A stretch of 37,586 bases of DNA from Folioceros fuciformis (GCA_049999805.1 JBNGIO010006035.1:1-37586), one strand, 5' to 3'; shown: positions 12,740-37,586, counted from the stretch's first letter. Numbers and translations: made by a program. The notes: generated by a model not told the origin, from the sequence alone.

Positions 12740-14978
12740 ATGGTTGGTTTCTGAGATCGAATATCATCTCCAGCTTTCATTGCTTTGTGGAATTTTCTTG
12801 TTCCTTCCCAGGACAGAATAGGTGTACGTGCCTGTCAAGCAGTGTACGCTGCATGTCCACAGGACCCGGCTCCAAGCAGCCAGATTGTTGAGGACCAGGA
12901 ATTGGGGAGCGTGAACGATGACAAGATGTCAGTTTACCGCACGACGGACAATTCTGTGGATATCTGGGGACGGCCCTCCAACAAACTCAAAACCGGGCGT
13001 TGGAGATCTGCATGGGTCGTCTGTGGTGAGGGGGACGAAACCTTTGCAATGCACAGAATTTGCCTTGCATTTGGTCCTGCTGAAATGCTGGTTGACTGAA
13101 TTCAATGTTCTGGTTGACTGAATTCAATGCTTGCATTGCAGCATTGAATGTGGCGGACACCATGGCTGTCATCGGCATTGGTGGCAACCTGGTGACGTAC
13201 CTTATGTTCACATTCCACATGACAGGCCCGGAAGCGGGCAACCTGACAACAAATTTCATAGGCGTCAACTACTTGCTTCCAATGCTGTGGGGCTTCTTGG
13301 CCGACGCCTACCTAGGCCGATTCCTCACCATATCCGTGGCATGTGTTATGGCGATCATGGTGACTACTTTCCCCTGCCTCTCTATCGTCGTCATCTTCCT
13401 TCATGCACCAAACTCTTCGTGCAAGCATTCTATCGGATTCAACAACGAGTGCAGTCTACAACAGCTGATGCAACCGACATGTGCTTCAGGGCCTCGTCAT
13501 TCTCACTGTGCAAGCTGCCACACCGTCTCTGCTCCCTCCAGCCTGCACGACATACCCGAAATGCCCGAACCCCAGCTCCAACGTAATGAACCTCTTCTAC
13601 GGGGGCCTGTTCCTGCTGGCGGTGGGATCCGCGGGGATCAAGCCCTGCATCTCCTCCCTGGGGCAGGAGCAGTTCGACGAAGGCGATCCCGCGGAGAAGA
13701 ATCAGCAAACGCACTTCTTCACTGTCTTCTTCAGCTCCATCGACATGGGCAACCTCATCAGCTTCTCGATACTGGTATGGGTCCAAGATCACGTAGGATG
13801 GGGCCAGGCGTTAGGCATCAACCTGGGCTCCTTGGCCCTCGCCTCCCTTGCCTTCTGGCTCGCCACACCCTGGTTCAGGTACGTCTGGCACGTCACCCAA
13901 CTCTCCAAGTCACCCGCACTGGCCCTCTTCCCCCCTTTCACCAAAGCGTTACTCTTCCAGGCACCAAAAGCCGAGAGGCAGCCCGTTCACCCGCATGGCT
14001 CAAGTATTCGTCGCCGCCATCTCCAATGCCAAGCTCACCGTCCCGCCCAACACCCGCGACCTCCACGAGCTCAGCGACAAGGAATGCCAGCACCGAGGCC
14101 TCCGGAAGGTGGAGCACACCAACGGTTTCCGCTGGCTCGACAAGGCAGCCATCAGGCCAACGGTCCAACGAGCCGAAACCGAGGCCTACTCTGATTCCAA
14201 TCCGTGGAAGCTCTGCACCGTGACGCAGGTGGAGGACACCAAGAGCGTGATCCAGATCCTCCCCATCTGGCTCACAAACATCACGGTATGGACGCTCTTC
14301 GCACAGCATCTCTCCTTCAGCATCGGGCAGATCGGCAGCGTCGATCGGCGGCTGATCGGCAACTTCGAAATCCCGCCGGCCTCAGCCACGATCTTCTTGA
14401 TCCTGGCAGCCCTCTCCGTCATCCCCGTTTGGCACTACGTGGTGACTCCCCTCAGTCGGTCCAGAGGTGGCGTCACTCAGCTGCAGCGCATGGGGATCGG
14501 GATGGTGCTGTCCTCGGTGGCCATGGTGACGGCTGCCTTGGTGGAGAGAAAGCGGGTGGGCATCATCCGAACCCATGGGCTAGACTACCAGGATCTCCTG
14601 GCCGGAGCTGTGCCCATGACCGTCTGGTGGTTCGTGCCGCAGTACGTGATTCTGGGCTTCACTGAGATCATCCTGGGCGTCGCCCATCTGCAATTTTTCT
14701 TCGTGGAAGTCCCCGACGGGATGAAGAGCGTGGGGACTGCTCTCTTCTTCGGTAACGTCTCCCTGGGGTACTTCCTCTCCACAGTGCTCGTCACCGTCGT
14801 CAACTCCTACACCACCAAGCACGGCTATGGCTGGCTCGATGGGGATGGCATCGTGCATGGCGGGCTGGAGAATTTCTATTGGCTCTTGACCGGCATGGTG
14901 GTTGTCAGTATTTTCCTCTTCCTCCTCCTCGCTCGGGTGTATCGCTACAAGCAGCTTCATTCCGTTTCTACTTCATAG
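12740..14978 (+). CDS. NRT1/PTR family (NPF) transporter, ~596 aa
   Basis: Exons 12863-13025, 13142-13359, 13490-13878, 13961-14978, plus a putative ATG-only exon 12740-12742 (start uncertain; alternative Met at 12926). Motifs KTGRW, GFLADAYLGRFLT, GSAGIKPC, QEQFD, PRGSPFTRMAQVFVAA, RWLDKAA, LCTVTQVEDTK, LQRMGIG, VPQY. Confidence 0.93.
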
Positions 14979-17898: not shown

Positions 17899-19145
17899 AT
17901 GTCAACCAATTGCGTCCATGAGCCCGGCCAGGGTGACCTAACGCGCACCTTCTCCTCCGCACCACAGGTGCCGAGGGCCAGGTATCATATGCATCCACTT
18001 ACCCTGATAGCGTGCATCGACATTACTGTTCGTTGAATCCGGTGGTGAGGCAAGCTGAAGGGAGAAGAAGCTTGTGTGGAATTGTGGGAGAAGGTATGAG
18101 ATTGTGTGGGATTGTGAGAAGGTATGAGGCTATGTGCGATTCCGATGGAGTACAACATTGTGTGGAATCGTGAGAAAGTACGGGACTGTGTGATATTCTG
18201 GAGTGGGGCATTGGCATGTGGATTCTGGATCGACATCGCGCGCTGTAAGGTCTGACATTTTCGGGAACTAGTGCGCCCGATGGCAGGTTCCAGGGGCAGG
18301 TGGCGGTGGTGACGGGCGGGGCGAGCGGAATAGGCGAGGCGACGGTGAGGAGGTTTGTGAGCGAGGGGGCGAGGGTGGTGATCGCGGACATTTTGGATGA
18401 GCCGGGGAAGAAGCTGGCGGAGGAGCTCGGCTCGGCAGCGCATTTCGTGCACACCGATGTGACCAAAGAAGAGGACGTGGCGGGCGCGGTGGATGCGGCG
18501 CTGGCACTTGGGGGCCGGCTGGACGTAATGTTCTGCAATGCAGGAATCCTCGGCGCGGCTGGCGCCATAGACGAGCTGGATATGAAAGAGTACGACTTCA
18601 CCTTGGCGGTGATGCTCAAGGGTCCGGTCCTCGGGCTGAAGTACGCGGCGAAGGTGATGAAGCCGGCGCAGCGAGGCTCCATCATCTTCACCTCCAGCAC
18701 TGCATCCATCCAGGGCGGGCTCGGTCCGCACTGCTACACAATCGCCAAAACCGGCCTTATCGGCCTGACCAGGAGCGCGGCCTTCGAGCTCAAGAGCTTT
18801 GGGATCCGGGTGAACGCGGTGGCCCCGGACGCGGTGGCCACACCCCTGCTCCAGCACGCGTTCAAGACCCTCCCCGGCGTCCCGAAAGACCTAACCCTGG
18901 AGGGGACCAAGGCGATTGTGAAGAGCCAGTCCTTCGTCAAGGGCCAGGAGCTTACGCTGGAGCAGGTGGCCGCCACTGTTGCCTTCCTGGCCAGCGATGA
19001 TGCCGGCTACATCACTGGGCAATGCATTGTGCTGGATGGAGGACGCACCTCTTTGCACCTCTCCATGACCGACAATTGGTTTCGAGGCCGCCTCCCTCTT
19101 CTCAGAGAAGCAGGCATCACAGGCGTTGAGAACAAGGAAACCTGA
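17899..19145 (+). CDS. Classical NAD-dependent short-chain dehydrogenase/reductase (SDR110C; ABA2/Tasselseed2-like), ~313 aa
   Basis: Exons 17899-17981 (start inferred) and 18287-19145; a phase-2 intron splits the Arg codon before FQGQVAVVTGGASGIG. ADI (NAD preference), DVT, CNAG, YTIAK, GIRVNAVAP, FLASDDAGYITGQ..LDGG. Confidence 0.92.
18072..18200. repeat. Degenerate ~27-nt tandem repeat in SDR intron
   Basis: ttgtgtggaattgtgggagaaggtatgag / ttgtgtgggattgtgagaaggtatgag / ttgtgtggaatcgtgagaaagtacg. Confidence 0.6.
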
Positions 19146-19794: not shown

Positions 19795-20450
19795 GATGCC
19801 ATGGCCTCCCGGCTCCATTTTCTTCCTTCCCCTTCCTCGATGTGCTTCTCCTCTTCCCTTCCCAATTCCATGGCCTTTCTTCTCCTCCTCCTTGCCCTCC
19901 CTCCTTCTCCCCCTTCCCCTCGCTTCNNNNNNNNNNNNNNNNNNNNNNNNNNNNNNNNNNNNNNNNNNNNNNNNNNNNNNNNNNNNNNNNNNNNNNNNNN
20001 NNNNNNNNNNNNNNNNNNNNNNNNNNCGCTACTCCTCTTCTTCTTTCCTTCCACTTCGGTTTTTTCGGTTTAGAGCTCAAGCGATCAGCTTTCAAAGCCA
20101 TGGCCTCTTGCCTCCGCATTCTTCCTTTCCCCTTCCTCTTTCAGAACCTCTCTTCCTCTCCCCCCTTCCCCTCGCCTCGTCCCCTGTTCTTCTTCCCTTC
20201 CTCTTTGGAAACCATGGCCTCTCTTCTTCTCCCAAAGAGGCCATGACCTCTCTCCTTCTCCCCCTTTCGCCATTCTTCGTCCCTTCCCTCCACCCCTCTT
20301 CTTCTTCACTTTCTCTTTCGAAGCCATGGCCACTTGCGTTTGCATTCTTCCCCTTCCTCTCTTCTTCGCCCCTTCTGACTTCCAAAGCCATGGGCTTCTC
20401 GCCTCCGCATTCTCCCCTTCCCCACTTTCCCCTTTCCCGCTTCCCACAAA
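19795..20450. repeat. Pyrimidine-rich low-complexity repeat with recurring aaagCCATGGcct core, spanning an N gap
   Basis: ccatgg/ccatga cores at ~19799, 19868, 20098, 20212, 20241, 20324, 20388; three are followed by a gcattct-containing motif. Confidence 0.7.
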
Positions 20451-20849
20451 AAGAGAATGGCTGCGCACATCAAAATATACATAAAGTTTGCAAAATAACA
20501 CACACAAATAAATACAGAGCCAGACACCATTTTTTTAATCCGGAGCGCAGTTGTTTCGTCCTAGGCTTCCCAGATTCTGTTGTGTAAGAAACATCTTCTA
20601 ACTTATCATTTAATAAAGTCTTCTTTCCTTCCTACTTTCTCGACCTACATATGGGTAGATACAATGTTGTATGTACACTCAAGATTTCAGAGAGATCCGC
20701 GCGGGAAGATGATACACAGGTGGCTTGACAAAAACCAACGGAAACACGTGGACAATGAACCGGTCCCAGCTTCAAAACCTCCATGCTTGTTCTCGGAACT
20801 CGAATTTACACTTTTCAAGGTCCCATAATTAACGCAGTGGAGTACACGC

Positions 20850-23205
20850 CTACCGTTCCTCCCTCACGTGTTTATTCGGATCGGATAGCATCTCCATCAT
20901 CACCTTCTCCACTCCGAAGTCCTTCAAATCAACCTGGAACGCACGACATCGCTTGAACACAGAGTAAAATAAGAGTACAAACGGAGAAAGAAAGCACTAC
21001 TACCTTTCGACGTTGTTCAACAAAGAGGTTCTCCCTTCGAAGAAATGCAGCCTGCTTTTCTAGGGCCGCCTGCCCACCAAGTCCCCATACTTCCACTGCC
21101 GAGACTCCACCCTTTACGGATCCGTAGCCCTGTTTGCAGGTACGGATAGTGTTATGAATGGTCTCATGAAGAGCATCAACTTGAGAAGGGTATCCGAGAT
21201 GGAAGAAGGCTCACCTGCTCTGGGACAAGAGGTCCAGAACTGTATGTCTTATCGACGGAGTGGTGCCTCAACGTAACACATTCAAAGTCTTCATCCAGCC
21301 ACACCCTCTCATTTCCGAGCTCCCCACCAAAACCCACGCCCTCAGGCGCCGGGTGCGCCCTGTATCCTGTGCCTGGAACGTGACGGTGGCTGTAGACGAA
21401 GAATTTGTCTCTACCTAAATCCATTGGTCAGATATGATGTACAGCATCTTAACAGAGGTCGTCTGTTCAGGATGGCATGATATGCAACACTATTCTGGAC
21501 AAGTTCTGTTTGTGTGGCACACGGGAAGACTGCTGTACATACCAGTTGGACGATGCGCAAGGAAAACCGGCTTCGCACCAAACAGGCAGCAAGAACTGCC
21601 ACCGTAGTAAGTGTCCTTGTTTAAGAATCCGCCAGGTACGAGCGCCCCGATGACCCACCTTTCCTGTGTGGATGTCTGTGTTTGTGACTGTAGGGAGTCT
21701 ACCACCGACTTCGCAGCAATAAGCAACAAAATGGGACCTTCATAACCCTGAACCTGGGTCCAAAACCTGTTCAGACTCTTGCCGTCAATGGAAGACCTGC
21801 AAAAACCTCGACAGCGTAAGCCGGGACTCCAAACCTCTGGTCAGCAACTTCAGGAATCCTTCTAGACTGGAAGATTAAAAGACGCACCTATAGAGTAGGT
21901 CCAGCTGGGAACGAGAGCAAACTCCAATTAGCGTACTTGCTTTGACAAGCTCCCGCGAAATGGCTCTCTCTCCATGAGAGAGGCCTACCGCCCAAGCAGT
22001 GCCTGCAGTCAGTAGACCTGGTTTTACGGATTCAGCCAACTCCTCAGAAGGCAGATTTTCGCTAAATTCCTTCTTCTTCAGTGACTGGCTACTCTTCTCA
22101 GCAGTCTGAGACACATGTAACAGAGTCAAAAGTCGCCGAAACAGCACTACCTAAACAGAAGCAGCTGTACGAATCAATGTCCCACCTCCGCAACACGTTC
22201 CAGCTGTGTCAAAACATACTGAGAAAGGCAATCAGTGAGTCCTGGAATTGCCGACAGGATCCAAGCATGAAGGGCCTTGAGTGGGAGTCTTCCAGCGTTT
22301 TCAGGGCCTACAAGGCCAAGATCACTCTCAGGCAGCATCCTGACGATATTGATGCTCATGGGACAGATGATCACCGACAAAAAGGTCCTCAACACTCAGA
22401 TTTCACTCTACCTGATTTCACAGCCAATCGAGCTGCCGTAGATAGGAGCTCAACATCTGGTGCTTCTATACGAAGAAGCTCTGCGTAATTAGACCCATAC
22501 AAACCCTTGAGCTCTACAAAACATGTCATAAGCCAACAAACCTTCAAGAACTCTCCAAAGTCATCCACACTGACGTCTCCATCACCAATTTCCTCTGGAT
22601 CCTCGCGACTCACACGACTGGTCGTGGAAAAATCAGCAGCTTCTCCCTCGCCTTTGCTAATGCGAGGCAACAACGAGAGGAGCAAATTCAACCTAATTGC
22701 CCCTAGATCCTGTTTGCAACAACGGTTAAACCCCTTCAAAAACCCCTCCCACTCCAACGCCGAATCTCCAGTCACGCCGAACACCTTCTCCGCAACAACA
22801 GCTCCTAGCTTCTCCCTCGCAAACTTTTCTGCGTCACGAGCTTTCCCTTCCGCTGCACCAGGCGCTTCCTTGAACGCCAAAGTGCGGATGTTGAAACAAT
22901 TCTGCTTCACAGGACAGAGGGGGCTCGTCAGCTCCAAAACCAACCATCCTGTGCTCACGTGCAGAATTGCTCCGAAGTTGCTACCACTACGAAATGGTTG
23001 CCAACTGCTGCACAACGGTCAGATTCAGAGCAGGCCAAAATCAGGTTTGATGCCTCGCCTGCAGATCGTGAGCGGCAATACTAGGAGCTCTCGTTCCAGC
23101 GCCGATTCCAACCAGATCCTCGAAAGCTGTCTGCAAGAGGATCTGGTCCCTGCTCAGGCTCTCGGGCTCAGACACATGAGCCCCGGTAGACGAAGACGCA
23201 CCCAT
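20850..23205 (-). CDS. N-myristoylated TLDc-domain protein (At5g39590-like), ~546 aa, 8 exons, first intron GC-AG
   Basis: Exons 23205-23059, 22901-22412, 22307-22186, 22105-21888, 21796-21543, 21414-21215, 21129-21004, 20933-20850. MGASSS start; LLYRSSIDGKSLNRFW..GYEGPILLLI, WVIGAL, GVGFGG, RVWLDEDF, VEVWGLGG. Confidence 0.9.
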
Positions 23206-23535
23206 GGCGAAAGTTTTCTCGTCCACCTTCGCCTCCGTCAGCAAAAGTGGGTGTTTGAGGTAACATTTATTTTTTCCCCAAGCAACGTGGCTTTACCATG
23301 TAGCGCAAGAAACGTTAACAAAGCATGGCAAGGAAAGAAGAATAATTTTACTTAGTCCACAAAGAACTTTGTCGTACAACTGAAGTATACTATAAGATAA
23401 TCGAACAGATTTTGAAACTCAAACAGGACTTCAAAATAATCAATCACCAAATGCGTTTACGAGGCACCACCAATGGAACTGCCTCGTAAACGTACGAGGC
23501 ACCACCAGTTGATCTACAGCCGAGAATGAGGGTGG

Positions 23536-24012
23536 GTAACTTCACACTCAAGGCAAACAAGACGACAGCAAACACCCGGACCAGCAACACTGGATAGGCG
23601 GCCAAGAATACTACTCCCCCACATCGTCGGAGAAACATCAGTGTCTGGGGAGATCAATGGCTCGGGAACGACAACAGCAGCAACAATAATAATAACCAGC
23701 ATCTTAATGAACACCCAAAGACTTGGCGACTCAAGTCACTACAGAATTCGGACATTAGAAACAAGAAACCGTAAGTCCCCGACAAGGCAAAGGGGGGAGG
23801 GGGAGCATCAAAGACCCGAACCAGGAACACGAGATAGGAGGGGACTACATTTCTTGATCGCCAAGAAAAGCTACTCCCCCGCATCTTCGGAGGAACATTA
23901 GTGTCTGGGGGAGATTAGTGGCTCGGGAATCATAATGATAATAATAGTGAACAGCCAGAGAAGTTGGGGACACAAGTCATTACAGAATTCGAGTCTTTGA
24001 TAAACAAGAAGC
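23536..24012. repeat. Diverged tandem duplication (~235-240 bp unit) between SYP61 and the TLDc gene
   Basis: Copies ~23536-23770 and ~23771-24012 share caaggcaaa, gatagg, ctactccccc, tcggag.aacat.agtgtctgggg, tggctcgggaa, caagtca.tacagaattcg, aaacaagaa. Confidence 0.8.
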
Positions 24013-24126
24013 CTAAAAGTGGGAACCTGAAAAATGAAGAGAACGAAGAGAATAGACTCTTAAGGAAACCCTTCCGTTTCACTATCTGGCACTCCGATTT
24101 CACCTACATTACGAGGGGTTTGCTAC

Positions 24127-25551
24127 TCAATTAAACACCAGCCATATCAAAATGAGAAGGAGAGCAATCAGGAATCCGATCATTCCTATCTGGCCCTTCA
24201 CCCCTACCCTCTTCAATAGCACCTCCAGCTTTTTCTGCAAAACCAATTTTTTTGTTATGGTCACGTAGTCAGAAAGTCACGACATCTGAAGCCGGTGTTC
24301 AATGTGCAACAATGGAGAAATTACCTGCACGAAGTCCAAACGATTGGCTGTGCTTTCCACATCATGGCCCAGTTCGTCTATAAGTCGTTCCTGACATTCC
24401 ACAAAAACTTACTCCAGTTTCCGCAAGAAGAGCCGAGCAGCTTGAACGCGAAATCGGAAAATAAGGCATGACAGACGTGACATCTGACACTACCTGGCCA
24501 GAAAGCTCTTCGTGTATCGTCAAGCCAATTCCACCAATACGCTCGACGCTGGCACTCAAGTCATCCAAATCCTCGTCCTGTTCCCTGAAACATTAGGCAC
24601 GTATACTTCCATCACAGGAAGGAGAGCAGCAGCCGACTCATCGCTTTGGGACTGATTCAAGAGCTTACTTCAGGATGAGAGCCTGTCTGTCACTTTCATT
24701 GGCAACAAAATTTTCGTTGTCCCGCACCACTGCCTCGTTCGCCTTGGGCGCAACACGGGCATCCCCAATCCTCATGAGCTCCCGTCTGTTGGTGGCGGCG
24801 GCACTTGATTTTCTCGGGATAGCGGCTTGCACAGCCTTCCTCACCGTTGACACCTATTCAAACAACGAACCAAGTGCATATGCAACGGCAATCATACCAC
24901 TCACTAACAATGCGAGACTTTAATCAGCTAAAACTCACCTGAGCACGAGTGGAGCTGGTCCATTTTCTTCTGCGACCAATCTCAGCAGCATCCACACTGA
25001 ATTTTGCTGGATCTCTCTCTGCCACGGTAATAGCCCTATCAAGTTCATCCACCTTCCCACCCCAAAACCCCGCTCCTCAACAACCGGGAAGGGCAGGCTC
25101 TGCCTTGGAGAAATCTGCAATTGGCCCAACTCATTTCAAAAGCTGGACTACCAGGAAGACATCCATCCGGACCCCCTCATCACCCCCTGCTCCGTAAACC
25201 TACCAAGGTATCCCCTCAATTCACCACCGCCAGGCAGCAGGCTGACTAGACTATACCAGCCACAACCTAGACAAAGAGGAGGCAAAATGTCGCACCTGCC
25301 ACTCAATGCTTTCACATCCTGAAAGAAGCTGCTTTGCCAGCTGCACAGTCTCTGGCAGACCAGGATGCATCTGCTGCCATTGCTCGAACTGTTTCTGCAG
25401 CTTCCTGGCCTGCGGTACACGGGAAAGAACTGCCAAGCGTTAGCCACTAACAAAACTTCACCAGCATCCCTTCGACACTGAAGACAGACGTACGTACCGA
25501 ATCCTGTATCTCCTCTTTCACAAGATAGAAGGGATCGAGGGCAGAAGACAT
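24127..25551 (-). CDS. SYP61: Qc-SNARE syntaxin of plants 61, ~243 aa, 7 exons
   Basis: Exons 25551-25498, 25409-25296, 25052-24939, 24853-24669, 24584-24494, 24390-24325, 24234-24127. MSSALDPFYLVKEEIQDS, CESIEWQVDELDRAI, EQDEDLDDLSASVERIGGIGLTIHEEL, C-terminal TM IGFLIALLLILIWLVFN. Confidence 0.96.
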
Positions 25552-25619
25552 TGCTCCCCCTGATGCCTGTGCGTGCCCGATCGGAGACTTCCGACTCTGC
25601 ACCGAATGAGACGTGAAAA

Positions 25620-25628
25620 AAACCCTAA
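25620..25628 (+). promoter_or_regulatory. Telo-box AAACCCTAA ~70 bp upstream of the SYP61 ATG
   Basis: aaaccctaa at 25620-25628. Confidence 0.4.
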
Positions 25629-26217
25629 TGAACGGGAGTAGAACACGGCTGCTTTTTATCGAGAAACGTGCTAACTAACAAGTCTCGCCTTGTCGGACGA
25701 GACTTCAGCTTGGTTCTCTCCGCCTCTCCTCGCACGAGATGCGTGGGCACAGTCATCAGCATGGCGACGAGCGGACATGCCAGTGACTTGATCGGACACG
25801 CTTCATGTTTCGATCAGAAGGTCGGGGACTTGGAGATGTAGTTCACGAGGCTGCCCACAACGGTTAGAAGGGCGGATGTTGTCCTCTTCTCAACATTTAG
25901 ACATGCACGACAGCAGGAAACCTTTAAACGTCAAGCAAGTCCACACACGGTGCGGCACTTGAATCTTTCTAACCTTTCTAAGCTTACAAGGGAACATTTC
26001 TTGTGCAGGAAAGGTACGAACCCGTTTAAGCCACCTCATCAGATGAGCGCTTGCGAGGACGTCGTCTTGAACAGAAGTGCAAATCTGTGCCCGGCAACAT
26101 TTTTGAAGCCAAGCAGTGCCCATCCTTTCAAACCAACTTTTCCTCCCTCCGTATGCACCAGCTATGTGCTTACCGTGTTCCTCCGAACCTGTCTTCAAAC
26201 GTTTCATTAGCATTCTC

Positions 26218-26680
26218 TTAAAGAGTGGCTGGACGTAGTCTGGAATTGATGAACGTCGCCCACTGCTGGAAATCTGGAGGAAATCGCAGCCACTCCATTA
26301 CTTCGTCCGAAATGTCATCGAATTCGCTGGACGAAGTATGTAGCAGAGAGTCTGCAAGACTTCATGCACTGGGACGGAACACTGTCCCGGTAACTAGGTT
26401 TCAAAGCGAGTACGTGAGTGTATCTTGCCACACGGCCGTCTCTATGTTGTCTGTACTGGTGCCCAAGTCAAGAAAACGTGCGAGTGCTTCAATCCCACTT
26501 CCCAGCTCTTATCTCCACTGTAGTCTGATCTGCTGCCCCGGGCTGGTTTTCCCTTGTCCCAGATTGTGCCATCCTTTTCCTCTCGCGCATGAGTGGCTTC
26601 AAAGCGACTTGCATATCGCCTTGAAGGAACAGAGTTGAAGCCACTTGCATGTTAGTCAAACGAAAGCTTTGCCGCGATAA
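26218..26680 (-). pseudogene. Decayed copy of an unidentified multi-exon gene family
   Basis: Translates MQVASTLFLQGDMQVALKPLMRE, WR*ELGSGIEALARFLDLG, SEFDDISDEVMEWLRFPPDFQQWATFINSRLRPAT with stops and frameshifts; the GT donor present in the 36.5 kb copy is mutated here. DNA similar to 36477-36830 (direct) and 28980-29075 (inverted). Confidence 0.65.
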
Positions 26681-26749
26681 TTAATCTCCCCTAATCGTAA
26701 GCCTCATAATCAAAGTTCCTAAAATGACCACATTAGGCCTTACGAATCC

Positions 26750-27125
26750 GGCCTGGTGTTCCCAAGTAAAGGTGAACTAAGCCTAAAATGACTCACATCA
26801 GGCCTTACGAAAACCAAGTGGGATTTTAAAGGTATCCAATGGATCAAGCTTGGTACACAGATGAGGTAAAGAGTGTAGGTTGTACCAGTCTAAAACAAAC
26901 AAAATCATTTCCACCAGTGTGCATCTTCAGCAGAGATGTGCAATCTTGCATCGCAAAGTGCTTAAGAATATTTTCAAGGAAATGAAATTGGAGTATTGTT
27001 TGACACAAGATATGCTAAAAGCCTGAGTCTAGACAAGACTACTACACAAGATATGCTAGCAGATATCTTGACTAAAAGCCTGAGTCTAGACAAGCGTACT
27101 AGGTATAGGAAGATGCTTGGCTTCA
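26750..27125 (+). mobile_element. Degenerate Ty1/copia RT-RNaseH remnant
   Basis: Fragments GLVFPSKGELSLK, SSAE, EMKLEYCLTQDML and QDMLADILTKSL match copia RNaseH (KLEYCPTEDMLADILTK); internal short duplications (aaaagcctgagtctagacaag x2). Confidence 0.8.
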
Positions 27126-27699
27126 GGGATTCATTTCGATATGTCGTCAACATATCGAAACAAATCCACAGCTCTGGTGGTTATCGGGATTTGAGCAACC
27201 TCTATTTACATTGACACCAAACAAACGGCTGGCAGCTTCCTTTCCTGGCGCACTTGAAGAAACTTGAAAGAAAATCGAAGTGTGGAAGCAGACCGCTGTA
27301 TGACCATATTGGATGACCGGACATGAAACCGGGGAAAGGAGAGAGTGCCTCTCTTCGCACGTTCAGTGTTGAGCACAATTCCTCTGGCCTTTCAGCTCGG
27401 TGAATCAGACCGTCAGTGAAAGTTTGAAATCGGAACACGCCCACCAGGGAGTTCGAATTTCTTGGAAATCCGAATGCTTCTTTGAATTTTCGTCTGCCGT
27501 TGGATCGCTCAAGAAGTGTACTTGACAGCTTCCATGGAAACATCACCAAGATGAACATGAAAAAATCGCAATCGTGAAACAAATCAGTCGCCTGTTAGCT
27601 TGGTTCAATTTCAAATGCATTCGGGAATGTTGCAAAACTCAGGCTTTGTTGCTCTTCCTTCGCGCTCTCTTCTTCGGTTTGCTTCAGGCTCTGTTCTCT

Positions 27700-27880
27700 T
27701 CTGCGTGCTGAAAACGAGTAACTGTGATCTCCTTGAGACTTGCAGCAGTGCGCAACATTTCACATCCACTCGTTGCTGGACGTAGACTGGAATTGAAGAA
27801 TATGACCCACTGCTGAAAGTCTCCAGAAAATCGCAGCCACTCAGGTCCTCCGTCCGAAATCTCAACGAATTCGCTGGGTG
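27700..27880 (-). pseudogene. Additional exon copy of the unidentified family
   Basis: SEFVEISDGGPEWLRFSGDFQQWVIFFNSSLRPAT, homologous to 26230-26330. Confidence 0.6.
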
Positions 27881-27981
27881 CGCGCTGGTCGTGTCCTTGT
27901 CACTGCGCATAGGTGGGACAGATGACTTTGCTTCTCCTGAAACTTGAGGAGTGGGCTAGCTTTTCCCACAACCAGCAAGCC

Positions 27982-29075
27982 GGTTTGTGAAATTGTGAGC
28001 CCACTTCTTAAAGTCTCAGGAAAACCAAAGCCACAGGAAAGTCGAATCCACCATTCTGAACGACTTGCTCTGCTTGAATTCTGTCAGTTCCTCATACCAA
28101 CGCTTCAAAAGTTCTAGTGTTGAGCTCCCCCTCCTAGCCTCCTTGGTATGCGCTTGTCCAGAACAACAACAACAGAAAGTCCAATCCATCACAAGAACAA
28201 GCAATCTTGCTGCACAATCGTCACTGCAACAGCTAGTATTGCGCAGAAGCTTACAATCTGTATGCATCACTGAAAACACTGTCGAGCTTGCAAGCGCTGC
28301 ATGTCACACGACCGTCTGTCTCTAGGGAGGAAACTTGGTACTGCAATGCGGAGGGAGACGCTGATTGTGCTGTGGGAAAAGCTCATGGAGCTGCACAGAC
28401 TATATACCCCGGGCAGAGTTCGCATCTAGCACGTCAATCTCAACCCAGACAAGACGTTGAAGCTTCAATTTCAACTCAGACAAGACNNNNNNNNNNAGCT
28501 AGTATTGCGTAGAAGTTTACAATCTCTATGCATCAATGAAAACGCTGTCAAATTGATTTTGGCAGTCGAGGTTGCAAGCTCTGCGTGTCACATCACCATC
28601 TATCTATAGGAAGGAAACTTGCAAATGCAATGCGGAGGGAGAAGCTGATTGTGCTGTGGAGAAGCTGATGGAGCTGCACAGAATATATATCCAGGGCAGA
28701 CTGCGCGTCAACCGCGTCAATTTCAACTCGGGCACGAAGTTGAAGTCCAAGGGATCCCTGGACGTTTACGCGACCAACAAGTCAACCGTGTACAGGTTCG
28801 GACAAATGTCAGATTGCTTCCTTTTCCCTGATTGGTCCAGCCCGGTAGGGTTTAGCGGACAGGCATGGCCCAGTCCAGAACTTTTGTGCAAGTGGCTGTT
28901 GGCCTTTTGCTTGCTAAGCAGCAGGTTACCATTCTTCAAGAGGAAGCGGGAGAAAATGAACTAACAAAAATATGTAGAATATTGTGGCAAAGCTTTCCCT
29001 TGACTAACATGCGGAGTGGCTTCAATTCTGTTCCCTTAAGGCAAGTTGCTTTGAAGTTACTCATGCACGAGCAGG
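27982..29075. repeat. Left arm of a large inverted duplication (partner 36740-37586), with internal tandem duplication 28231-28486 / 28497-28750
   Basis: ggtttgtgaaattgtgagcccact...ccaccattctgaacgact is the reverse complement of the window end; homology continues through gagaagctgatggagctgcacaga and gtggcttcaattctgttcc. Confidence 0.85.
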
Positions 29076-29509
29076 CAAGAAGGTTAGTTAAGGAGATCTT
29101 CATTATGGATTGTTCATTCCCTATCATCTTTATATGGAGACAAGGGAGCCAGGAGCAAGCATTAAGGAATGGAAAAAGTGGAGTTAGTCTTCTATTTCCT
29201 CCTTATAATAGAATTTTCTTTTAAAACATTTAAATTATTGATTAGATTATTTTAAATCTATTTATTTTATATTTTAACAATATTTAACAGTCATATATTT
29301 TAAATATTTATTCTGAATCTTAAAAATATTTAATAAAATTTAACTTGAATATTTAAAATTTTTGCTATCCTTGTGTTCAAGTTCACTCTAAATCGTATGT
29401 AATTTTTAAATGAGGGAATAATTTGAGATAACAAATTCACTCTACTTCTTACTGGCAACTCGAAGGTTGGTTCTACATCCAAGCACATTTTTTTTTGTGG
29501 AGAAAAGAT

Positions 29510-31085
29510 CATATTATGACAACTTGTAAGAGGCAAAGGGCAATGAGGAAGTGTGGAAATTCATGGATGAGATTTTCAAGTAGTGGAAGCCAAAAAACTA
29601 CAAGAACAAGTGGAGGCAGTGAGGACTTTAGTCACACAATAGTCCAAGGCAAATGGCCATCACAAAACACAATCAGTGTCCTCGATTCAAGCAAACATGG
29701 TGGTTGATATGAAGAAGGCTAATATTCCGGTGAGGGTCTAGCGCTGCTTCCAAGGGCATAGAGCATTCTACCGCTAGGAATAACAACATGAAGACAACTT
29801 GTATGAAAATGTTGGTAGGGAAGATAACACTGAAGAAGATGGCGCAATGGGTGGAGAGTGACAAGAAGCTAACTCTAATTCAAGTGACCCTAGCAAGACA
29901 CCTGAACTATAGAACGATTAAGGAAGTGAGGCAACACTACCCAGAGTTTACAACGCTCCAATAAATCAATAACTTCCAGCTAGCATTTTGACACATGGTG
30001 AGTATGCTATTTGTGTGGCACCGAGCCCTAAATACCACCAGACATCTAGTGTAGCTATAATGCACAAGCTCCATTGTCTTAGGGAACCCGGCACATTGTT
30101 AAGTCAACTTATTTCCCCACTAAGTTTGTTCATGGTGCTACGCCTCTATGAATGGTTGTTAAGATGTATCTAACTTGTATGCTGGCAATGCTTTGTAAGC
30201 CATGGCCCCTCACCCTGCGTGGTTCTAGAATTGCAAAGAACAAACACTTGCCTCATTTGGGAAATGGCTAGCACCAAGTTTTGTGGAACACATGTACAAA
30301 GCAAAGNNNNNNNNNNGGAAATGGCTAGCACCAAGTTTTGTGGAACACATGTACAAAGCAAAGGTGTGGAAACTCATTGTAGATGAGCAGGCAAAGCTAC
30401 AAGCAGCCACCTCAGAAAGGTCAGTGATATACAAACATCCTACAGATTTAGAAAAACCTTAAAGGTAGGCATAATATGTGGCCTTAAAGGTAGGCATAAT
30501 ATGTGGCTGTATTTTAAATATCGCAAAGTTGTTTGAGCTGCGACTGTACTCATTACTGTTATTGGATTTGTTGAGAGGGCTGAATCTAGGTCCTCACTCC
30601 AGAAAATTTGACACTCAGTTGTCTCATAAGGAGTTTGAACATGCGATGATGCAGGATGATGCAGTTCAAGGCTATAACGAGAGAGCGGATGTGTTTCGTA
30701 TTGTTTTTTTCCATTCGTTGAACGACATGAGCACAATCAAGGAAGTGTTGCAGATGTCATTTTTAGGAGGAGTGAATTCATGTTTTTGGTACAAGTCAAA
30801 TATCAGGGGTAAGTGCTTGGAAAAGGTATATGATGCTGATGATTTCTTAACTGTGGCAACTGGTTCTTCCATCAAGAATTGTGTGCCGCCACAATATTTG
30901 TTGCCGGCTAAAACAACTATCCTCAAAGATGGGAGAGGCATGACCAACATGTTTTTCAGAAAGGGTAGTGGAGCACAAGTTGCGCTATACCATTGTGGAT
31001 GATCGAGTGGTCTTGCCATATCAGAAACTAGTGTGATTGTAAAAGAAGTTGATAGAGTTGTACATGGTGGAAGGGTTGTTTGCAT
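29510..31085 (+). pseudogene. Intron-containing pseudogene of a beta-class N4-cytosine/N6-adenine DNA methyltransferase fused to an upstream helical domain; probably TE-borne
   Basis: YSLLLLD(LL)RGLN (motif IV position, 30547-30585), FRIVFFHS...SCFWYKSN (WYKSN at 30787), DDFLTVA, TNMF, then after a +1 frameshift VVLPYQK(L)V*L*KKLIELY(M)VEG (31007-31075, motif X HPxQKP...LI...EG). Donors gtgagt at 29998 and gtcagt at 30420. Motif I is truncated. Confidence 0.65.
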
Positions 31086-34000
31086 CATACAATAAGTGTT
31101 TGCTCCTCGTTATGAACTAAAGGCCCCCTCACAAAGTTGCTGCTGTTGGATTGTGGCCTTGTATAGTTGAAATTCTCCTGCACCATGTTGTGCTCCACAC
31201 CATATTTTGAGCGAATTCTTCTTAGATGTCCAAATTTGCGCTCTACCTCCAAATATGCATTGAAAATTGTATTCGCTTGTTTGTTGTTGTCCAACACTGC
31301 CCAAGTTATTTAGTGCATTATTCCATCAATGGTAGAATGCACCTTGGAGTGGAACATATACACTGTCATAATTTGCACTAATCCCCACCAACAATCCCAC
31401 CTTGCAAAGGTCAACACTAGGCTCCCACCCAAGGTGCCAACACAAGGTCATATTTAGTATGCCCTACTTGCCTCACACCCAAATGCATGCGTAGGGAGCA
31501 CAACTCACAATCCATATGCCACATGTATATAGGTTGTCTATTGCTATATTGTACTTGTATCATGCACCCTAGCGCATAGTGCCATAGACGTTGGCTAGAG
31601 CTCTTGCAACATAGTTGCCACCTACCTACTAAGGACAAGATACCCCTTGTCTCGTAATGCTACTTCCACAATCCTCATCCCCTAATTCTCTCCTATTGGG
31701 TGATACGCATTTTCTATCTCACACTTCACAAATAGTCTTTGATAGCCTAGAGTATGCTCCTCTTCAAGTTGGATATGGGCAGCCCATCTCTAGAATGTTC
31801 TTATGTAACCTTCAAATTTTGGGAGAGGGATTTTTTTTGTTAAAAAAGAGTAAGATATGGCTTAGTAAGGTTTTTTTTTTCCCTCTCTTTTCCTTTATTT
31901 TCTGGTCATTTTTCCTATTTTAGTTTTTTTAATTAGGTTAATTGACCAGTAAGTAGTTAGCGTGATTAGTGGAGTAGTTATAGATTTAGTACGAGCTCTG
32001 AGGAAACTTAGCCTTGGTACTGGACCATAGATTCAGATATAGGTTTGGTTTCCGGGTTGGTAATATTAATAATATATAATTATTTTAGATAATAATTAAA
32101 TAATACTTCGAACAAGGTGGCTATCTCAGAGAGGGAATTTGTGCAGATGGGGTTGTCTCCTACTAATGGATAGACTAGAGGCCAGTTATGTCGACTACTA
32201 GGGCACAATAGATTGAGCAATGGGAAGACCAGTAGGGAGCTGGCAGTGGCCCTAGGTTGAGGAGCCCAACCTATGGCACGTGAGGCTATTGTGAGCTATG
32301 GGATTGAGACGTGGGGTGACTAAGTTGTGAGGGGGCTAGAATGTGTGAGCACAATCCCAAGTGGCACTAGTTATGGTCAATAGGAGGAGGACACTGGTGA
32401 CTATGAGATTTGGCAGGAGGGGTTGCGAGTTGTTGATCTAGACCATGACAAAGCTAGTTCGGTGCAAGTCGGGACCCATTGTATGAAATCGGGCTTGAAC
32501 CAATTGGAAGGGCGCTCATGAGCAAGAGGGACCAGGTGCCTGATCCTGTGGGCGCAGTGAGTGAAATTGCAGGAATTGGGGATGCTGTGATCGGTGGCCA
32601 CTGGATTTGCAAGCAGCAAGCTATTGGATTGAAGTCAAAAGTTGGTGGAAGTGGGGCTCGCCTTTGGCACGTTGCCAATTGGCACAAGGGAGATTGGGGT
32701 TGGATTTCAGCTCGGATTGGAGTGCATGAAGGGGCACGCTCCTCACCTTGTGCTTCTCTTCTTTTTCCCTTGCGATTCCTCCCCATATTCCTACTGATTT
32801 CCACCTCCACCTTGTGCACCCGTCTACCCTTCCTCTCCTCTCCCATTCCCTCCCCTCCACGAGTTGGTCTCTGGCCCATGCCTGCTCACCCCCTATTCCC
32901 TTCCCACCTCTCTTCGTGCTAGTTCCTTTAACTCACTTTGATGGGGGCTTAGCTCATGCAAAATCCATAGTAACTCTTATGCTGTATTCTTCCTACTACT
33001 AACACATCTCAGATAGGTCTGGTCCACCGTCCATGGGCCCATAGAGCATATTTTTAGGACTAATTGATGGACTGAAAGATCCTCCTTCCGTGAGAGTTGC
33101 ACCCCAGCTGCCATAGGAGTTGTTAAGGGAGATGCTGTAGGAGTGAAGATAGTTGGTCAGGAGGCAAACTCGATGACCATGTGGACAACTGCAAAGGTAG
33201 ACCAAGAAGGCAGCCATCTAGCGATAAAGAGGTGGCACCCACCAAGTCTTATAGATCAGTCAACAGCCAATGGTCTACAAAAGTTAAGTAAGCTAGTGGT
33301 GGGGTCAGTAAGGGGACTGGCAGCTCATTAAGTCGACGGCAGGGTAGAGAATTCTAGATCAACAACTTGGGATAACCTACTTGTATAGTGACGTGTCGTA
33401 GTAACCACCTTGCTGAGAGAGAAAGTGGGGCTAGACTTAAGAGACTCCTATAAGAGGCTACGAGTCTTTAGAACCCATTTTGTTACTTGATGTTCACTCT
33501 CTCGGGCTGTTCCTCCATGGCTGTGTGTGCTGCACAACATCTCGTAAAGCCTTGAAGAGCGTGGCTATGGTTAAGGGCTGGGCCCTTTATTTTTTATTGT
33601 GCTATTTGTGTTGTGCTTCCGTGGTCTATCCCTCTTGACTCTTTGCTGAATAGGAGTTGTGTGTTGGCCATGCTCTCGTGGTGATTGGTAGGATCGTGGG
33701 AAGTGGCATCTTTCTCTCTGGAGTTAGCTTAGGGGAGTGGCTCTTGCTGAGTAGGGGAGTGAACACGAATGTGTAGACGGTAGTCTTGTTGCTATTGGTG
33801 CAGGAGTGAGTGAGCAAGTGAGTGACGAAGGAGAATTGTAGGCCTGAGACTTGTATGTCGTTGTAGCGGTAGATGTGAGCGTGTTGGCACCAGGGGAGGT
33901 ACAGGAGATCACTTGACAATGAGGTCTATCCTATGCCCAACCAAAGCTAAAGGGAAGCTCTCGAATCCGTCATCGAATTGATGTGTGTCTCATGTGTGAG

Positions 34001-36476
34001 GACTGTCCAGCCATAGGAATATAGTTGTTGGCATATGTTCCTAAGGGCTAGCAAAATATGGTGAGTTGTGTGAGTAGAAGGGCTGACCCTTTATAGCAGT
34101 GAGAAACTCTATCACTCCTTCATGGGAATGAAACCGAACATCTCAACAACAATTTGATAAATATGGACACTAGAAACCGAAGCCTAGGTTGTTAGGTATC
34201 TAGTATTTTGCCACCAGAGCACCCATCCTCTTCTACTAAGGCACTAAGCAACCTCTCTACCTTGCATTCCACTTGTGCAAATTTCGCAGTGTGTCTACAA
34301 GCACTATGGCTAGGCAACCACTATAGACCATTATCAAAAGTTGGGAGTAATGTACAATAGATAAAACTTACACCCTAAACCATAGATTTTCTTCAATTAA
34401 AAAATATTATTATATTATATACTACTATATTAAAAAAATCAGTTGATATAAAGCTCATAAAATTCTATAAAGAATCATAATATTATATTTATTAAATAAT
34501 TTTATAAATTATTATTAAAAGTTTAGATCAATCTTTGATTAGGGTTAAGAAAATTAGGTCATCAACAATTTAATTGTTTCAAAAGACAAGCTATATTACA
34601 AGAAACAAAGAGGAAAAGTAACTCTTTTTGAGTGTGGTATTTCTTATGAACTTGAAGAGAATCCGAGCCATGGTTGCATGTGTCTCCCATTACAATGACA
34701 AGGGGATAAAAGCAATCCATCTTAGACATGATTGAGATATCCTCAATCAATTTTTTTAACCAATACAAGAACCAAAATATTATTTTGGATGTTGAATAAA
34801 ATCTAGTCTAAGCATACTTGTAAATGGAATATTGATACGGATACCACCACATAGTATACAGTCCTATATTTTGACGCTAATTGGCATGACTGTAACTATA
34901 GTGGGCAGTTTTGAGGGTGTCCCGTTCCAGCCATCCCCATTCGGCTATCATCCGATAGACAAGACTTTCCTTTCCTCCGATAGACAAGACTTTCCTTTCC
35001 TCNNNNNNNNNNTAGACAAGACTTTCCTTTCCTCCGATAGACAAGACTTTCCTTTCCTCTCACCACTGCACACAACATTACAATGATTTCACACGATCGC
35101 ATAATTAATTTCAGGGCATCAAGACTCAAGGCAATATGTTCTCCTTTTTTCACAGTTCAAGAGCATCATGTACCGCTCCATTGCACTTCTTATGTTACTA
35201 TGTAAGGTAGGTACAAAGGGTGCACCCTCACCCTAAACCATCAATCCCTCTTGTATGGATTAAAAGAATACTTGGGCAAAGTATAGGTGCTGCCCTTCTC
35301 CCGCTAAGGTATAGGGTGAAGTGTGGAAGAATGGCGGTTTGATGAAGTGTGTTTGTAATGTGATGAAGTGTGCAAGAATGGGGGTTTGATGAAGTGTGTT
35401 TGTAATGTAAAAAAGTGTGCAAGAATGGGGGTTTGATGAAGTGTGTTTGTAATGTGATGAAGTGTGGAAGAATGGCGGTTTGATAAAGTGTGTTTGTAAT
35501 TTGAGGAAGTGTGGAAGAATGGCGGTTTGTTGAAGTGTGTTTGTAATCTGATGAAGTGTGGCAGAATGGCGGTTTGATGAAGTGTGTTTGTAATCTGATG
35601 AAGTGTGGAAGAATGACGGTTTGATGAAGTGTGTTTGTAGCATGATGAATTTTGGAAGAACCATCAATCCCTTTTGTATGGATTGAAAGAATACTTGGGC
35701 AAAGCATGTAGGTGCTGCCCTTCACCCACTAGGCTATAGGGTGAAGTGTGGAAGAATGGCGGTCCGATGAAGTGTGTTTGTAATCTGATGAAGTGTGGAA
35801 GAATGGTGGTTTGATGAAGTGTGGAAGAATGGCGGTATGATGAAGTATTGAAGAATGGTGATCTTGAATGGGTAGAAAAGACAGAGGTGATCTGAAGGGG
35901 TAGAAAAGATAGAGGACAAAGCTTGTGCGAGTAGAAAGATTGTGAATCTTGTGCATGTAGAAAGATTGTGAATAGAAAAGAAAGAAAGTACAAACCCAAA
36001 GAAGATTCTTTTGAGTTCTTCATCAGTCCACTAAAGTGACAATGATAGCAGACAAAAAAACTTCTTACCATATATGGCACCTTGTAATAATATGACATGG
36101 GGCCCTAAAATCCATATGTACATGAAAGATGCTGTGGAATATTCTCATAACACATGAATGAAAATTAAAAATTAAATGTAAAACTCAATGGAGGATGGTA
36201 TGTCTGTATCCATATTCCATACTTGTGCAATTCCAAGTAATTGGGCTCAGGCAGTTTGACTGATTAGAATGCCTATATTGCCCAATTATAGTCAGGAAGT
36301 ATGGAAAGCCAGTTTGATGTTTGATTTTGGCCTCCGACCATAACAAGTGGATGAAATTTTAAAAATGTTTTTTTTTCACTTTATATATTAATTAAAAAAT
36401 AAATAAATATTTTTTAACTATAGATTGGAAAGCAACCTCAACCTGATTTTAGGCAATATAGTGGTTGTATGAATAT
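31086..36476. mobile_element. AT-rich, CpG-poor nest of decayed transposon-like sequence (possible LTR-like segment ~33350-34140)
   Basis: AT-rich spacers (31820-32110, 34390-34600, 36360-36420), only short stop-riddled ORFs, TATA-like ctataagagg at ~33448. No diagnostic domain or termini identified. Confidence 0.4.
35237..35860. repeat. 47-bp minisatellite with higher-order structure
   Basis: Unit aagtgtggaagaatggcggtttgatgaagtgtgtttgtaatNtgatg x7 from 35319 (period 47). An ~83-bp header (35237-35318) recurs at ~35659-35743, followed by ~2.5 more units. Confidence 0.92.
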
Positions 36477-37586
36477 GATGAAGTATGTAGCAGAATCTGC
36501 AAGACTTCAAGAACTGTTCTAGAAAAATGTCCCTGTGGATAGGTTTCAAAGCGAGCAGCTGTGCGTTGTACCTTGCCACTCTGCGGCCGCCATGTTCTCT
36601 ACATTATTGCCCAAGTCAAGAAAACGTGCCATTGCTTTGAACCCACTTCCAAGCTCCCATCGCCACTGCACTAATCTAATCTCTGAGCTGATCTGCTGCC
36701 CCGGGCTGGTTTTCACTAGTCCATGGCTGTGCCATCCTGTGCAGCCCGCGCATGCGTGGCTTCAAAGCGACTTGCATATTACCATGAAGGAACAGAATTG
36801 AAGCCACTTGCATGCTATTCAAACAAAAGTTTTGACAAACTTTTCTACATTTTCCTCAGTTGCGCGTCCCTAATGAAGAATGCTGATCTGCTGCTTAGCA
36901 AACACGAGCCTGTGCAACTTGCACGACAAGTTTGGACCAGGCCCTGTCTGTCCCCTAAAAACTGGTGGACAGGACGAATCAGGGGAAAAAGGAACCAATC
37001 CCACATCAATGTCCAAACCGGTGCACTGTTGACTTTGTCACTCGGTGTACACGACCCAGGAGACTGTAGACTTCAACGTCTTGTCTGGGTTGACACTGAC
37101 AAGCTTCATGCGCACTCTGCCCTGCGTATATAGTCTGTGCAGCTCCATCAGCTTCTCCCTCACCACAACCAGCTGCTCCCTCCGCATTGCATTTGCAAGT
37201 TTCCTCCCAGGTCCTATAGACTGACAGCGGTTATGTGACCTGCAGAGCTTGCAAGTTCGGTTTTCAAATTCAATGTGGTAGTGTTTTCATTGATGCATAG
37301 CGATTGCAAACTTCTTCGCAATACTATCTGTTACAGTGATGTGTGCAGCAAGATTGCTCGTTTTTGTGATGGATTGGACGTTGTGTTCTTATTCTGGACA
37401 AGCATACCAACTTGAAGGAGTGACTGTCTAGGAGGGGGAGTCTATCACTACTAGAACTTTTGAACCGTTGGTACCAGGAATTGACAAAATGCATGCAGAG
37501 CCAGTCGTTCAGAATGGTGGATTTGACTTTCCCGTGGCCTTGATTTTCCTGAGACTTTCAGCAGTGGGCTCACAATTTCACAAACC
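36477..37586. pseudogene. Right arm of the inverted duplication: decayed copies of the unidentified family
   Basis: Minus strand: RKLANAMRREQLVVVREKLMELHRLYTQGRV, QWRWELGSGFKAMARFLDLG. Plus strand: LLELLNRWYQELTKCMQSQSFRMVDLTFPWP*FS*DFQQW. In-frame stops. Confidence 0.65.

Follow-up and report, generated by a model that had tools for sequence, protein, structure and literature searches.

A probable pseudogene fragment of a eukaryotic, N6_N4-type-like family with a DLPRG loop in Folioceros fuciformis

Introduction

Bacterial-type N6_N4 amino-methyltransferases are, to our knowledge, very rare in eukaryotes. The two characterised cases are reportedly N4CMT of bdelloid rotifers and DN4MT1 of Marchantia, each of which is said to have revealed N4-methylcytosine (4mC) as a eukaryotic mark. 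Replacing the Ser and Tyr of the SPPY motif of N4CMT abolishes 4mC addition (PMC8885841), and the Marchantia enzymes carry TSPPY (bioRxiv 10.1101/2021.02.12.428880). Here, we describe a related locus in a 37,586-nucleotide (nt) stretch of DNA from Folioceros fuciformis (GCA_049999805.1, JBNGIO010006035.1:1-37586), referred to as the window. Positions 29530-31075 of its plus strand hold what we consider, with a probability of about 85%, to be a pseudogene: a non-functional fragment of a gene from a small eukaryotic family that is unannotated and N6_N4-type-like and has a DLPRG loop. An initial annotation had described the region as a spliced, probably transposon-borne relic of a prokaryote-type N4C/N6A DNA methyltransferase in a plant genome, with motif I missing, and had inferred that a mobile-element family in this lineage carries an intron-bearing writer of 4mC or N6-methyladenine (6mA), of which intact copies may exist.

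A decayed gene with relatives in public run assemblies

The decayed gene lies on the plus strand at 29530-31075, and its frames match six proteins from public run assemblies. A phmmer search with the 175-amino-acid (aa) frame at 30475-31002 (+), run against 1,835,955,588 representative proteins, gave seven matches at E <= 1e-3, led by E-values of 3.9e-24, 2.0e-21 and 8.5e-15. Six of the seven are colinear relatives (P0001-P0005 and P0007). The other, P0006 (2,468 aa, repetitive, E 5e-5, five stretches), is probably a chance match and was left out of all alignments; two further relatives, P0008 and P0009, were added from a cluster look-up of the phmmer matches. Searched back against the window with tblastn, the relatives gave colinear matches across 29574-31075 with E-values of 1.4e-36 to 7.5e-13, on the plus strand only; nothing comparable occurs elsewhere in the 37.6 kb, and there is no second copy. 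Given these phmmer and tblastn E-values in plus-strand frames, the relic is real and above chance.

The peptide strings on which the initial annotation was built are all present on this strand. EEVWKFMDEIF, ITLKKMAQ, TIKEVRQHYPEF and PSFVEHMYKAK lie upstream of the 175-codon frame; the codons GAT TTG TTG AGA GGG are at 30565-30579, in frame within 30475-31002, and share that frame with IVFFHS, KEVLQ, FWYKSN, DFLTVA and TNMF; PYQKLV(stop)L(stop)KKLIELYMVEG follows at 31016-31075, one frame over.

The relatives surfaced only with a full HMMER scan. Word-indexed protein searches gave zero matches, both for the plus-strand frame (at two length settings) and for a read-through of the minus strand. 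In none of its frames, with stops read as X, does the relic match a Pfam family at E <= 10, and a six-frame Pfam scan of 29050-36503, again with stops as X, gave a single match, on the minus strand (PF24764). None of the seven phmmer matches carries a name from any of the named protein sources, and the relatives' 90% clusters hold 1, 1, 3, 1, 1 and 1 sequences, each on a single contig. Pattern searches for related loci produced 163 and 77 pattern matches in metagenome contigs and 27 in prokaryote genomes, with 0 confirmed in each case. A search of viral contigs found one ordinary phage DPPY methylase, matching only the S-adenosylmethionine (AdoMet) half. Rfam showed no family over the window. 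One RNA run bearing the same species label gave no sequence that aligned to the stretch, a result without bearing on expression.

The relatives resemble beta-class amino-methyltransferases

What kind of protein does the family encode? The proposal of a prokaryote-type N6_N4 methyltransferase relic is borne out, as beta-class-like, by way of the relatives. First, the full-length relatives P0001, P0005 and P0002 score 50.1, 47.3 and 30.0 bits against PF01555 (N6_N4_Mtase), for which the gathering threshold is 26.7. The remaining four of the seven relatives scanned (P0003, P0004, P0007 and P0009) are fragments that end before the AdoMet half and give no match. No MT-A70 Pfam match was found among the relatives scanned, and NCBIfam gave CcrM-like matches only, all sub-threshold. 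Second, a six-relative profile searched against the PDB matched M.RsrI (5.2e-8), TTHA0409, M1.HpyAVI, M.MboIIA, CcrM and rotifer N4CMT. Third, DNA methyltransferase families in PHROGs matched at 1.7e-18 and 2.1e-14, the second over residues 69-312 of P0001. Fourth, in an AlphaFold 2 (AF2) model of P0001, strands and helices follow one another as in beta-class enzymes. A VIA search with this model ranks N6_N4-type structures (beta-class enzymes and type III Mod subunits) in all of the top 20 places, with Z scores of 15.4-12.5 over 182-232 residues: CcrM at 15.4 (root-mean-square deviation, rmsd, 3.8 Å over 207 residues), M1.HpyAVI and M.MboIIA at 14.7 and M.PvuII at 12.5. The match to N4CMT has a Z score of 13.1 (rmsd 3.8 Å, 197 residues), and METTL3-type chains reach at most 10.1, below the N6_N4-type enzymes. 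Foldseek with the same model agrees, giving 96 matches at E <= 1e-3.

The order of the motifs points the same way. The circularly permuted order of this class—motif IV region, variable region, X, I, II—is seen in the relatives by alignment, by model and by fold over residues 50-316, and the window relic follows it up to motif X. The three full-length relatives retain motifs X, I and II intact, with motif I reading DGCSGSGS or DMCSGSGT. Sequence-level similarity to prokaryotic and phage enzymes is restricted to the AdoMet half; by BLAST, none of 50,697 phage records resembles the catalytic half. The N-terminal domain of ~210 residues belongs to no recognisable family (an AF2 model of P0009 has a mean predicted local distance difference test score, pLDDT, of 41.8), and an ESM Atlas search with P0009 gave scores of at most 0.87, a lead only. 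No paper dealing with plant copies turned up in a literature search under the Pfam name.

A DLPRG loop at the predicted position of motif IV

The residues D89 L90 P91 R92 G93 L94 (P0001 numbering) are invariant in six of six relatives, and the window equivalent, at 30565-30579, is D-L-L-R-G. MAFFT aligns DLPRG with the DPPYG of a canonical phage methylase, and VW.K, QKP and GSG fall in register too; in the P0001 model, strand 83-89 ends at D89. None of the six relatives has the canonical motif IV, (D/S/N)-P-P-(Y/F/W). Relative to that motif, they retain the Asp and the second Pro, lack the first Pro and have Arg in the place of the aromatic residue.

The six relatives are mutually less than 50-57% identical. 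The invariance of DLPRG despite this divergence means that the loop is ancestral to the family and not a product of decay. The initial annotation had suggested that changing TTG TTG to CCG CCG would restore DPP; this fails, since all six relatives have D-L-P-R-G, and therefore the second Leu alone of the window copy was once Pro. Two other reversions that it proposed, Leu to Pro in YQKP and TGA to Arg, agree with the relatives. It had also named paralogs lacking motif IV and motif I as evidence that would count against it, and half of this was found: the canonical motif IV is absent from all six, and motif I is present in the three full-length relatives. The inference of a 4mC/6mA writer is thus weakened.

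Gene structure

The window copy has a GT..AG intron, with GT at 29998-29999, a pyrimidine run, and AG at 30227-30228. The same position is marked in the relatives. A single 16,193-nt contig carries P0008 and P0003 as two separate open reading frames (ORFs), which P0009, from a contig of 4,011 nt, joins exactly: P0008 reads ...SFGGL/V..., P0003 reads ...VLQ/RVRSVG..., and P0009 reads ...SFGGL/RVRSVG.... P0002 likewise opens with ...CQ/RVRSVG, and P0008 extends into the intron-equivalent region (window 29752-30099 by tblastn). The intron lies at a position common to the relatives and appears to be removed in the joined form, as in a spliced gene. Of two introns previously proposed, this first one (29998-30228) coincides with the junction of the relatives. 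The second, placed between the proposed exons 2 and 3, is not real because 30325-30954 is homologous without a break, in a single frame.

The window copy is dead

Detectable homology begins with EEVWKFMDEIF, which is identical to PGVWKYVDEIF of P0009 at 7 of 11 positions; this stretch is below the tblastn reporting length and is colinear with the next segment. No counterpart of the first ~50 codons of the relative exists upstream in the window, where the DNA is AT-rich (29180-29480). The two N-terminal-domain segments that follow have a joint tblastn E-value of 3e-23. The first (29574-29756) contains two in-frame stops and has a frameshift at each side; the second (29752-29997) also contains two in-frame stops and ends at the exon boundary ...CATG/GTGAGT.

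The main exon (30229-30954) covers a linker helix (LAPSFVEHMYKAKVW) together with the methyltransferase domain's catalytic half, with the family motifs RIVFFHSLND, CFWYKSN, DADDFLTVATGS and TNMF after DLLRG. Three of its codons are in-frame stops, all within 30460-30474. The exon also has two tandem duplications, one of 25 nt at 30457-30506 and one of ~97 nt that is partly masked by a gap of 10 Ns at 30307-30316. Within 30247-30401, this gap is flanked by an exact 47-nt duplicate. A 72-nt contig, recovered from two of the source sample's runs, leads from 30401 back to 30260 via 12 letters, which indicates that the ~97-nt duplication is real and only half resolved in the assembly. After a frameshift near 30950, the relic continues to FSERVVEHKLRYTIVDDRVVLPYQKLV(stop)L(stop)KKLIELYMVEG, the motif X region (YQKP..L...L), with a TGA at 31034 and a TAA at 31040. 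The C-terminal parts of the relatives have no tblastn match anywhere in the window. Homology stops at 31075, before the DxCSGSG of the relatives, and motif I is therefore gone from the window copy, in agreement with the initial annotation.

In total, nine stops lie in frame within the homologous segments, along with three frameshifts and two tandem duplications. This copy, which also lacks both ends, is dead and without function. Over 29731-30289 and 30372-31346, contigs from the two source-sample runs show zero differences from the window; thus, the lesions are not errors of assembly, although this agreement, coming from the same sample, is not independent. The observed/expected CpG ratio is 0.34 in the relic vs 0.79-0.87 in nearby host ORFs, and TpG/CpA are in excess in the relic. 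This depletion fits the C>T decay that had been proposed for the locus. The source-sample contigs stop at 31346-31354, with 28-29 unlike letters on either side, which may reflect another arrangement or copy, or an artefact of contig ends. A loose contig end at 30640 looks like adapter sequence.

Possible functions of intact members

Intact members would consist of an exon 1 encoding the ~210-residue N-terminal domain and an exon 2 encoding a beta-class (circularly permuted) amino-methyltransferase domain, predicted to run from the IV-like loop through the catalytic core strands and the variable region to X (YQKP), I (DxCSGSG) and II (AVDVDP). The window copy would be a member stripped of its first ~50 codons and of everything from motif I on, abutting an integrase-core relic that is truncated too. 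Profile and fold matches suggest that the intact proteins most likely bind AdoMet, given their canonical AdoMet-binding half. It is doubtful that they methylate the exocyclic amino group of a flipped adenine or cytosine in the canonical way, since the predicted loop is DLPRG instead of (D/S/N)-P-P-(Y/F/W). They may instead have a different substrate or work as partners without catalysis of their own.

Several points weigh against this view of the locus. The relatives are known from run assemblies alone. The assignment to the methyltransferases is transitive, through the relatives, because the relic lacks a Pfam match of its own. Confidence in the AF2 model of P0001 is low (mean pLDDT 50.9, predicted template modelling score, pTM, 0.56). 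In a tblastn search of P0001 against the 50,697 phage records, 470 records match, over at most 26% of its length, with 0 at >= 80%, and hhalign of the family against a phage enzyme aligned the C-terminal 66 columns only. The putative equivalence of DLPR and DPPY comes from one MAFFT alignment and predicted secondary structure. The splice is read from protein sequences, such that P0009 is what a spliced transcript would be expected to give. Lastly, Arg is able to stack on bases, so DLPRG proteins may be catalytically active.

Alternative explanations

Was the gene carried by a mobile element? A relic of a DDE integrase catalytic core (PF24764, rva_4) lies on the minus strand, convergent with the methyltransferase relic and 28 nt past the point where homology stops. 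It covers profile positions 20-104 of 194, contains in-frame stops and lacks its C-terminal (3') half. No standard rve match was found for it, and a literature search on PF24764 and rva_4 gave unrelated matches only. Three copies of a dispersed repeat (75-82% identity) lie in the same part of the window. The inverted arms, ~1.1 kb long and 7.7 kb apart, bracket a CpG-poor block that holds both relics, and the right arm (36744-37586) runs off the window. The left arm has an internal tandem duplication, at 28231-28462 and 28497-28745.

It is possible, and we hold the idea tentatively, that the gene was cargo of a mobile element—an rva_4-type DDE DNA transposon or an integrated virus of eukaryotes—and that the window contains a gutted copy. 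The two relics are convergent, 28 nt apart and both without their 3' parts, as one deletion would leave them, and they share one CpG-poor block (~39-42% GC) between diverged inverted repeat copies. Occurrence in run assemblies only, with absence from the named protein sources, is typical of masked repeats. In addition, viruses of eukaryotes reportedly carry N6_N4 methylases. However, no terminal repeats or target-site duplication were found to bound the block within the window, which ends inside the right arm, and the left repeat copy simply ends at 29072. The flanking repeats are a dispersed family with a third copy nearby; they bracket the block yet define no element. Clusters of 1-3 sequences, each on one contig, are unlike a prolific element, and six-frame Pfam scans of 20027-36503 show no other transposon domain. 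Thus, the description of the locus as transposon-borne goes beyond what was found: neither element ends nor a target-site duplication could be defined, and the PF24764 relic is the sole hint.

A second alternative is that the intact members are ordinary DNA 4mC/6mA writers and that a DPPY-type motif was formerly present in the window copy. In its favour are the likeness of the whole domain, in fold and in profile, to DNA amino-methyltransferases, rotifer N4CMT included, the intact motifs X, I and II of the full-length relatives and the retained Asp and second Pro of motif IV. We nevertheless regard it as unlikely. DLPRG is invariant in six of six relatives despite mutual identities of less than 50-57%, and none of the phage records resembles the catalytic half by BLAST. 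In the characterised enzymes, the Ser and Tyr of SPPY are needed for 4mC addition by N4CMT (PMC8885841), and Marchantia has TSPPY (bioRxiv 10.1101/2021.02.12.428880).

A bolder version of the preferred reading—a pseudogene fragment of a DLPRG family—is that a plant-lineage spliced family, descended from phage-type beta-class enzymes, is functional with DLPRG, through a new substrate or mode of base recognition in which Arg replaces the stacking aromatic, or as an AdoMet-binding regulatory partner, and was spread or duplicated by an element with the little-studied rva_4-type integrase. This is a long shot. If true, it would be a third, independent and mechanistically different eukaryotic domestication of bacterial amino-methyltransferases, after N4CMT and DN4MT1.

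Finally, the plus-strand frames might have been open by chance, or might have been the antisense strand of the integrase gene beside them. This idea drew on the lack of a plus-strand Pfam match or word-indexed homologue, on the real Pfam match (PF24764) next door on the minus strand and on a 145-codon minus-strand open frame at 30672-31109. It has next to no probability left, having been refuted by phmmer and tblastn homology of 1e-24 to 1e-36 in the plus-strand frames to relatives that are themselves PF01555 members, and by an integrase profile match that ends at 31103 and does not reach under the relic.

Genomic setting

Judged by its predicted genes, the contig is plant-like and carries plant-type genes (Table 1), which fits the plant-genome setting assumed at the outset. 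Two further regions of the window are repetitive or of low complexity. A tandem array with a 47-nt unit occupies 35271-35897, where nine overlapping 155-nt copies lie in register at 61-100% identity, and the array has long minus-strand open frames rich in HTS/HFIKPPFFHTSS repeats. At 19927-20587, a gap of 100 Ns is followed by low-complexity frames on both strands that are rich in proline, serine and leucine and match no Pfam family.

Table 1. Coordinates of the methyltransferase relic and of other features in the window
Feature	Position	Strand	Basis
Start of detectable homology	29530-29577	+	Frame-1 EEVWKFMDEIF vs PGVWKYVDEIF, P0009 residues 51-61; direct reading
N-terminal-domain remnant, frame 3	29574-29756	+	P0009 residues 62-122; tblastn, 34% identity over 61 residues
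N-terminal-domain remnant, frame 1	29752-29997	+	P0009 residues 121-199; tblastn, 46% identity
Intron relic, 231 nt	29998-30228	+	GT..AG; position common to relatives
Main exon, frame 1	30229-30954	+	tblastn, P0002 24-223, 36% identity, E 1.4e-36
3' end of relic, frame 2	30953-31075	+	tblastn, P0002 223-263 (49%), P0001 231-271 (59%)
tblastn segments	29574-29756 (frame 3); 29752-29988 (frame 1); 30325-30954 (frame 1); 30953-31075 (frame 2)	+	tblastn
DDE integrase catalytic core relic, PF24764 rva_4	31103-31360	-	hmmscan E 1.4e-7, 31.9 bits vs curated cut-off of 26
Dispersed repeat, left copy	27982-29072		Inverted vs 36744-37586, 75-79% identity; repeat search and blastn
Dispersed repeat, third partial copy	26330-26679		Same repeat search and blastn
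PTR2/POT transporter ORF	13815-14978	+	1.7e-48
Short-chain dehydrogenase (SDR) ORF, GC-rich, intron-free	18249-19145	+	Best solved relatives plant borneol/secoisolariciresinol dehydrogenases, 2e-59
TLDc-domain exon	21529-21795	-	3.4e-7
Syntaxin 6/10/61 N-terminal exon	24933-25052	-	1e-11

Implications and comparison with known systems

What are the implications of a dead gene? The window copy is inert, and its value is as a pointer to the DLPRG family and, with it, to a further intron-bearing eukaryotic branch of N6_N4-type amino-methyltransferases. The invariant DLPRG loop amounts to a natural experiment on the need for the DPPY motif. If intact members are active, they would offer a new catalytic variant or substrate; if they are not, a DNA methyltransferase fold would have been recruited to a different role.

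The bacterial and phage beta-class (type II subtype beta) enzymes—M.RsrI, CcrM, M1.HpyAVI, M.MboIIA, M.PvuII, phrog_67 and phrog_498—have the same permuted order of halves as the family. YQKP (motif X), GSG (motif I) and the acidic motif II region are common to both. In contrast to these enzymes, the family has DLPRG instead of (D/S)PPY and a catalytic half too diverged for BLAST or hhalign, and it adds the ~210-residue N-terminal domain, a spliceosomal-type intron and a eukaryotic genomic setting. The MT-A70 clade (METTL3/METTL14 and MTA1/MTA9) shares a permuted amino-methyltransferase fold too, but its fold matches are weaker (Z score at most 10.1). In this clade, members with a degenerate motif IV serve as non-catalytic partners, METTL14 beside METTL3 and MTA9 beside MTA1, which would be a possible analogy for the family.

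The closest eukaryotic parallels are with the two systems introduced at the start. MpDN4MT1a/b of Marchantia polymorpha, like the family, are plant-lineage genes, and they group with prokaryotic beta-class N4C methyltransferases (bioRxiv 10.1101/2021.02.12.428880); TSPPY in MpDN4MT1 and DLPRG in the family set the two apart. Bdelloid rotifer N4CMT resembles the family in its eukaryotic setting, in its introns and in its descent from a beta-class amino-methyltransferase of bacteria or phages (PMC8885841). N4CMT was reportedly acquired horizontally, keeps the catalytic SPPY and has a C-terminal chromodomain, whereas the family has DLPRG and an unassigned N-terminal domain.

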